From Tubulanus polymorphus (lineage: Eukaryota > Animalia > Nemertea), in the NCBI RefSeq assembly GCF_964204645.1, contig NC_134029.1, positions 6,882,001 to 6,946,000 of the forward strand: 64,000 nucleotides of DNA. The letters are read 5' to 3'. Positions 26,601 to 28,140 of this stretch are shown here, in pieces. A program made the translations under genes and the position numbers. Position 1 is the stretch's first letter. Every line of letters starts with the position of its first letter. Below the pieces are notes generated by a model. That model saw only the letters and a list, made by a program, of their open reading frames with translations. It had not been told where the DNA came from and did not search any database.

Positions 26601-28140
26601 CTGCGCTCTTTGCCATTCCACTGTTTGAACTTAAGATTTGCAATCGATTCTTGGTCACTGAACCAAAGTTCTTTCGATAGCGGTGGTCTCATGTACGGCG
26701 GATAGTTTTCATTAGTTATTACGAGAACCTAGAATATTTAATAACGCACTGATTCGATCAGTTGTTTCTCAACTCCGGAGAAAGATTCTCCCCAAAGCAG
26801 AGATAGCTATAGAATCATCAGCAAATTGAAATTGTTCAAGCTCTATATACTGAAAAGTATTGTATTTATGCAATGCATATAGAGTCATTGCATTACATGC
26901 ACAGATTTTTTTCCTCAAAAAAATTTCTGAACCCTAGAATTGCAAATTAGATAATAAAATCGAATATCCAAATTCAATTTTCCATTTCTTTTCTTCAATT
27001 TGGACTTACTCGGGCTTTAGGATCACGTCCTTTAATAGCTCTGAATGCTGCAAACGAAGCAGTACCACCTCCGATCAATAAATACTGCGCATGTTTCGGA
27101 ATCGGATCCTTCACAACGTCGGAAGCAGCAGACGCGGCAGCACCAGTTGCAGCTGCACCAGCAGCAATAGAAGAGTCATCGTTAACATTGGGATTTGGGG
27201 TATGTGACACATTTTCTGAAATAGATATCGAAAAGGAGTTTAGTTAAATTGGGCATTGGTTTGAAGTCCGGCAAAATATCCAAAATATCTATGAGAACCT
27301 TGAGTTGTTTCCGATGCAGGTATTTCTTTGGCATCCATATATTTCAATCCAGGTCCGCTCAATTTGATTTGGGTAACGTCCGTGATCTCTTGGAAATTGA
27401 ACGCATCATTCTTCCACATCTAAATGAATTAAAAGAAGATTTTTAAAATCCACCGTGTGCAATATTTGACCAATAATTGTTCAGCTACCCGATACGTACC
27501 AAAAAGAGCGTTCCGCTTAGAAATAAAGACCCTCCCAGCAACCACATATTCATTTTCTGATTCCTTTTGTTGTAGTTTTCTTGCCATGAGCCTTCAGGCA
27601 CTGGGTAGAAGTCCATGTGAACTTTGTTGATCATGTCAAGTTCTTTTTCCGACTTCCAGTGTGAAGGAGTGTGTCCCCCACTCATGCATCTGACTGCCTC
27701 CAGTTTTAGTGAATCTATTGCAGTACCTGAAATTAAAAAGAATTTCCAGGACACGGTCACTCTGGTTCGGCGGTCAAGCCATGATGGTAAACAAGGTCAA
27801 GAGTTCAGAGCTGTTTTAAAAAAGGGATGTTAGTTATGAAGACTAAATTTTCCTCGGATTGTCTGTCTTACGATAAATGGCAGGTCAAGGATAAGATTTT
27901 GGTGTCTTTGGCTGAGAGAACGACGGAAGTAAGTTACACAGACTAAGTAAAAGGTGACATGGGCAGCTTTTCAATCAATCATTTCTGGTTTATCTAAGAA
28001 GGTTATAAAAATTCGGTGAATCTGGTACATTTCTTACATCTTGATGATTGTTTGAGCGTTTTTAAACTCGTGTATTGCCTCTGCAATACAGAAATAAAGC
28101 GTAATTTGTTGGTGTTGACTTTGGAAAGAGCAGCATACAT
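23609..28140 (-). CDS. AIFM1: Apoptosis-inducing factor 1, mitochondrial, with an N-terminal COX7B/prag01-like segment, ~671 aa, 15 exons
   Basis: Exons 28140-28038, 27726-27500, 27419-27299, 27215-27010, 26728-26601, 26507-26417, 26325-26164, 26071-25963, 25759-25715, 25618-25467, 25393-25253, 25054-24912, 24633-24480, 24181-24020 and 23680-23609 (2016 nt, in frame). Motifs [70 protein letters not shown] and [22 protein letters not shown]. Confidence 0.95.

Follow-up and report, generated by a model that had tools for sequence, protein, structure and literature searches.

The AIFM1 gene of the ribbon worm Tubulanus polymorphus, which carries a COX7B-like module at its N-terminus, is a real gene and is spliced into one mRNA. 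It lies in the 64-kb stretch of genomic DNA that we analyzed (the window) and is a member of a published class, the COX7BL-AIF fusions, so that it is real but not new. Homologs of Drosophila CG7630 (COX7BL) have been reported as fused to AIF in "a number of instances," in barnacles, Octopus, and Daphnia (A0A6A4VL42, A0A7E6EJ31, and A0A0P5E3W8, respectively), with a topology that fits, and the fusion was taken to support the partnership between cytochrome c oxidase (COX) and AIF (Brischigliaro et al., 2022, PMC9346487, citing Hevler et al., 2021). In the Tubulanus protein, too, a CG7630 homolog precedes AIF, and the two are read in a single frame from a single mRNA, with identical architecture and identical proposed meaning, and the barnacle example A0A6A4VL42 is itself a match (P0030) in our search with the Tubulanus protein. 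Nemertea, to which Tubulanus belongs, is absent from the phyla listed in PMC9346487. The initial annotation had read the gene as a Rosetta-stone fusion anchoring AIF to complex IV; this is still the best explanation of the mechanism, but it has been published before: PMC9346487 contains the same reasoning and draws on the same mammalian cross-linking paper. Further literature on the fusion was not found in the literature searched, which most subscription papers fall outside.

Gene structure and transcripts

The gene comprises 15 exons between 28140 and 23609 on the minus strand (Table 1), its introns are all GT-AG, and its product is an AIFM1 protein of 671 aa. The translated model is identical, letter for letter, to the 671-aa database protein P0002 (XP_074650754.1, named in its source [quoted passage not shown]; Nemertea). 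Exons 1 to 4 have AG/GT edges and form a single open frame, from which the peptides quoted by the initial annotation were recovered, and its description of phase-compatible exons without a stop is thus borne out. The introns separating exons 2, 3, and 4 are only 80-83 nt long.

Table 1. Exons of the Tubulanus polymorphus AIFM1 gene (positions in the window)
Feature	Position	Strand	Basis
Exon 1: basic presequence (aa 1-34), then phase-1 intron	28038..28140	-	Gene model and spliced contigs
Exon 2: presequence end (RCM, predicted cleavage), matrix-side Deltameth_res motif, most of TM helix (aa 35-110), then phase-0 intron	27500..27726	-	PF16020 match and predicted helix
Exon 3: TM end, intermembrane-space tail common to free paralog, linker start (aa 111-150)	27299..27419	-	Both flanking junctions in X3 and X5
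Exon 4: Ala-rich linker and start of FAD-binding Rossmann fold (aa 151-219)	27010..27215	-	Gene model and spliced contigs
Exons 5-15: AIFM1 core	23609..26728	-	Model; human AIF match; junctions to exon 7 in X3
Exons 5-9	26728-26601, 26507-26417, 26325-26164, 26071-25963, 25759-25715	-	
Exons 10-15	25618-25467, 25393-25253, 25054-24912, 24633-24480, 24181-24020, 23680-23609	-	

Four public sequencing runs were aligned to positions 23000-29000. One 985-nt contig of run X3 (study P1) is spliced through exons 1-7 and one 721-nt contig of run X5 (study P2) through exons 1-5; such a contig does not stand for one molecule, yet its junctions are read directly and the frame is open. Because these contigs are spliced, we regard X3 and X5 as transcript-derived. 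Their 5' starts are at 28159 and 28155, and both use the junctions 27500/27419 and 27299/27215, the second of which had been named as the junction to look for in RNA data. The concern that the 5' exons and the AIF exons might belong to separate mRNAs is settled by the presence of module exons and FAD-domain exons in single spliced contigs. Intron retention in runs X2 and X4 was considered and rejected: their unspliced pieces, one of which runs over introns 3 and 4, have identical 12-nt loose ends and are read as coming from DNA libraries. The exon 3 donor at 27299 (GTTCTC) is non-consensus, and its read-through would give a free module protein of 170 aa; none was seen among the contigs listed, which drop rare forms.

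Other features were observed in the window. An uninterrupted 327-codon frame at 20905-21888 (+), convergent with the AIF gene, matches PDCD7 (PF16021, E 8e-68), and 14997-15269 (-) is an exon of the sugar transporter family (PF00083). Upstream, a 2783-nt X3 contig reaches 28686 and an X5 contig 28523, approximately 400-550 nt from the AIF 5' end; the contigs at 28523-29000 and beyond are probably the 3' end of an upstream transcript. Intron 13 of the AIF gene contains a short repeated element (24227-24333), where many contigs with unrelated flanks align.

The COX7B-like module and the AIF core

Exon 2 alone matches PF16020 (Deltameth_res) with 44 bits (cut-off 27; E 1.9e-11), and the whole protein matches PF16020 at 76-120 (49.5 bits, cut-off 27), Pyr_redox_2 at 194-521, and AIF_C at 525-652. 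The family assignment made earlier from the letters alone is therefore confirmed above the gathering cut-off, and the architecture, about whose listing in domain databases the initial annotation could not tell, is already there: precomputed Pfam annotation has PF16020 on P0002 and the domain order. The suggested comparison with Pfam COX7B, made with 19 module sequences, yielded no match at E<=10, and sequence and profile searches of the PDB with the module retrieved no COX7B chain at E<=10, only chance matches. This miss of vertebrate COX7B is expected, because the published HHpred scores lend the homology between COX7B and CG7630 little sequence support (E 0.46 and 3; PMC9346487). The COX7B link of the module comes from experiments in Drosophila and not from a profile match: CG7630 co-precipitates COX4, and its loss is partly rescued by human COX7B (PMC9346487). 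The CompaCt preprint assigns the Anopheles ortholog of CG7630 to complex IV, and the passages covered say nothing of AIF.

Judged from charge only (9 K/R and 2 D/E in aa 1-49), the protein begins with a basic presequence that ends near RCM (aa 47-49), a motif also present in the free paralogs. The AlphaFold2 model (30-row alignment, mean pLDDT 70) has a helix at 81-113, disorder at approximately 120-183 (pLDDT < 50 at 126-183), and the AIF fold after 190. No other hydrophobic anchor was found in aa 40-200. An N-in/C-out single-pass topology is predicted, and the initial annotation's argument on topology is judged right. Residues N90, N94, L97, and G100 match exactly the COX4-facing pattern N(-4), N, L(+3), G(+6) described for CG7630, in which these positions were modeled (PMC9346487). 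With like residues allowed, the four positions are kept in 26, 24, 26, and 27 of 28 fused modules (the other 2 of the 30 being without the search motif), and all four in 22/22 free modules; at the first two, the fused copies are more lenient than the free ones. Averaged over 29 fused relatives, identity to the window protein amounts to 65% for the core, 54% for the motif (aa 72-94), 32% for the TM helix, 12% for the presequence, and 10% for the linker, and the motif is thus conserved far beyond the needs of a plain import anchor.

The module resembles CG7630 in its PF16020 (prag01) family match, presequence, single TM helix, and COX4-facing residues, while it differs in having a longer matrix segment, which is common to other spiralians, and in running on into the linker and AIF. 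In Drosophila, CG7630 and AIF are separate proteins (PMC9346487). The segment between module and FAD domain varies from approximately 40 to >280 residues and contains Pro/Ala/Glu-rich repeats (P0007-P0009, P0013, P0018, P0024, and P0084), and Lineus has three isoforms in this region.

The best solved relative of the core is human AIF 4BUR (E 1.3e-215). The residues named for allostery and CHCHD4 binding in human AIF (PMC11832770) are all identical when mapped by hand on the alignment (10/10; W196, Y347, W351, H454, S480, V507, F508, R529, Y560, and I610 in human numbering). Mammalian AIFM1 and the Tubulanus protein are alike in core (E 1e-215), in these residues, and in predicted N-in/C-out topology, whereas the anchor carries the Deltameth_res motif in Tubulanus and is PF14962 (AIF-MLS) in mammals.

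Spread, free paralogs, and origin of the anchor

The spread of the fused architecture was counted in the best 120 of 2081 matches to P0002, among which there are no insects, nematodes, or flatworms. PF16020 is present in 35 of them, 28 from named protostomes and 7 without a named source, and the fused groups are Nemertea, Mollusca, Annelida, Priapulida, and Crustacea. The module is found in 28/30 named protostome AIF proteins among these 120, the other two (Solemya and Gigantopelta) being 5'-truncated models that begin after the module, and in 0/74 named deuterostome AIF proteins and 0/9 further proteins without a named source. The module profile gives at least 60 bits for 30 fused proteins and at most 7.9 bits for non-fused N-termini (115/120 scored). 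P0210 was rejected as a module representative, being a chitin-binding repeat protein and a false match. Judging from 28/30 against 0/74, the fused state looks old, and, since Spiralia and Ecdysozoa both have it, it may go back to the protostome ancestor; the AIF-core tree, the deep nodes of which are poorly resolved, gives two changes and is also compatible with a single origin. A single-sequence search for longer relatives recovered 3/35 candidates and is too insensitive to count.

A profile search among short proteins gave 41 matches. The standalone COX7B-like gene that the initial annotation proposed to look for exists in the same species: T. polymorphus has a free gene of 113 aa (P0134), 73% identical to the fused module over 97 aa, so that the fusion is not the sole source of a COX7B-like subunit. 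It is absent from the 64-kb window, and its scaffold has the same length as that of the AIF gene. Scaffold lengths of free and AIF genes are also equal in Littorina, Nucella, Bradybaena, Solemya, and Gigantopelta, and the free models of the latter two could be the lost 5' end of the AIF gene; they differ in Amphibalanus and Priapulus, where scaffolds are short. In a metagenome locus (L020), a free module gene (4767-5600, +), with exons 2 and 3 visible, lies tail to tail with an AIF gene (9677-6695, -) whose 5' exons are beyond the contig. Caenogastropods have two to three free paralogs besides the AIF-fused copy (P0124/P0128/P0190; P0129/P0185; P0125/P0127).

A split of free and fused modules into two clades, with groups set beforehand by architecture, was rejected (52 modules, 80 columns; AU p=4.9e-5). 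In a 65-module tree, free and fused copies pair within Tubulanus (100/99), barnacles (98/90), and Priapulus (98/63); such pairing is absent in Bradybaena, Nucella, Littorina, and decapods and equivocal in cephalopods in this tree, many forks of which are weakly placed. The Tubulanus fused module shares 75% identity with its own free copy and at most 51% with any other module, Lineus included. This pattern of lineage-wise pairing and non-pairing indicates that free and fused copies exchanged more than once, at different ages, by duplication or conversion.

The exon layout also bears on the anchor. The phase-0 intron of the window gene lies 17 residues after a conserved Asn, and GT stands at exactly the same place in 17/21 metagenome loci, many of them near-copies (two run on in frame and two are unscorable). 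At this position 65/149 scored representatives switch to Val and lose similarity, as intron read-through would give. Two mis-predicted fish AIF models (P0071 and P0115) read into the intron at the end of the AIF TM helix, 18 residues after an Asn in P0071, and P0046 has an exon edge inside the presequence. From these sequences, the intron at the TM helix end appears to lie at about the same place in fish AIF and in the Tubulanus fused gene. In human COX7B, intron 2 presumably comes after codon 55, at a distance of 17 residues from residue 39. The human COX7B gene is divided into three exons, and its intron 1 follows c.40 in phase 1, as in Tubulanus exon 1 (PMC7918533), and the vertebrate AIF anchor is encoded by exons 2-3 (PMC8048367).

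By HHalign, echinoderm AIF anchors match the module TM helix and tail with a probability of 81% (score 28.9 vs 11.2 +/- 2.5; 0/100 shuffles), in a set of three sequences, two of them near-identical, that was singled out after a weak match. Vertebrate AIF anchors are marginal (3/100 shuffles) and hemichordate AIF anchors are not above shuffles (11/100). Taken as they stand, these comparisons are suggestive, not proof, of an origin shared by the AIF anchor and COX7B. Because the module is found in the very exon from which AIF gets its membrane anchor, the direction implied by the word "fusion" may be wrong. We tentatively entertain the opposite course, as a possibility somewhat short of an even chance: the fused state would be ancestral, COX7B/COX7BL would have been born from the first three AIF exons in early bilaterians, free copies would have been re-made from or homogenized with the AIF 5' end in separate lineages, and the vertebrate AIF anchor would be a worn-down homolog. 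COX7B was dated to the root of Bilateria in PMC9346487, with no source gene named in the sections covered; neither these nor the supplements take up ancestry, the co-occurrence of free paralogs, or exon structure. No published account of an origin of COX7B from AIF 5' exons with repeated exchange was found in the literature searched.

Candidate role at complex IV

We think it rather probable, reading from sequence, that the COX7B-like anchor sits next to COX4 and in this way holds AIF on a minority of complex IV molecules, the others being supplied by the free paralog. The presequence would be removed near RCM, after which the conserved motif would face the matrix, the helix (approximately 95-113) would span the inner membrane, and the disordered linker of ~65 residues would be long enough for the FAD/NADH domain to arrive at the intermembrane-space face. 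Most complexes would have the free paralog in their COX7B site and the remainder the fused form, a permanently wired counterpart of the COX-AIF complex (~10%) known from mammals, and AIF would keep its role as an NADH-switched MIA40/CHCHD4 platform at complex IV. This reading is supported by the single spliced contigs, the PF16020 match, the conserved motif, the kept COX4-facing residues, the intact AIF core, the co-precipitation of CG7630 with COX4, and bovine cross-links; it is weakened by the existence of the free paralog, by the looser conservation of the first two COX4-facing positions in fused copies, by the weak homology between COX7B and CG7630, and by the bovine model, in which the AIF TM helix lies outside the COX7B site. 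In cattle, AIF dimers can be cross-linked to complex IV, and COX6B1 and COX6C take part in 82% of the AIF-COX cross-links; in the model, the AIF TM helix lies against COX2, NDUFA4, and COX6B1, and COX7B is touched only slightly, by the second protomer (Hevler et al., 2021, PMC8488679). The contact in mammalian COX-AIFM1(2) is non-covalent, unlike the tether proposed here, and the model supports the association of AIF with complex IV but not docking via the COX7B site (PMC8488679).

The module may instead be nothing but the import signal and stop-transfer anchor of AIF, a relic of subunit ancestry that does not enter complex IV, with contact made by the flavin domain as in cattle. It does sit at the position of the vertebrate AIF anchor and is the only hydrophobic anchor of aa 40-200, the free paralog can supply the subunit, and mammalian AIF contacts are mostly with other subunits (PMC8488679). 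We nevertheless hold this to be unlikely, though a serious competitor, since the matrix-side motif is 54% conserved in the fused copies of five phyla and deuterostome AIF anchors do without it.

Mammalian AIF is released in cell death by cleavage after the TM helix. A cut in the long, disordered linker, or alternative splicing at the non-consensus exon 3 donor, where read-through meets a stop after 170 aa, might release the module as a COX7B-like subunit of its own and leave AIF soluble or loosely held. This is improbable, as both spliced contigs use the exon 3-4 junction (among the contigs listed, rare forms being dropped) and the species already has a free gene dedicated to the subunit. That two neighboring genes were joined by mistake in annotation or assembly deserves practically no credence, refuted as it is by the spliced contigs of two studies, and opposed by the 80-83-nt introns between exons 2, 3, and 4 and the same architecture in 35 of the best 120 of 2081 matches.

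The locus thus adds ribbon worms to the known carriers of a fusion whose existence and meaning are already published. It bears on why AIF associates with complex IV, and protostomes with both a free and a fused copy permit a clean test. Lineage-wise pairing, together with the exon layout that the genes share, points to a possible source of COX7B and, if the ancestral fusion is true, complex IV of most protostomes would have AIF as a built-in alternative 14th subunit.
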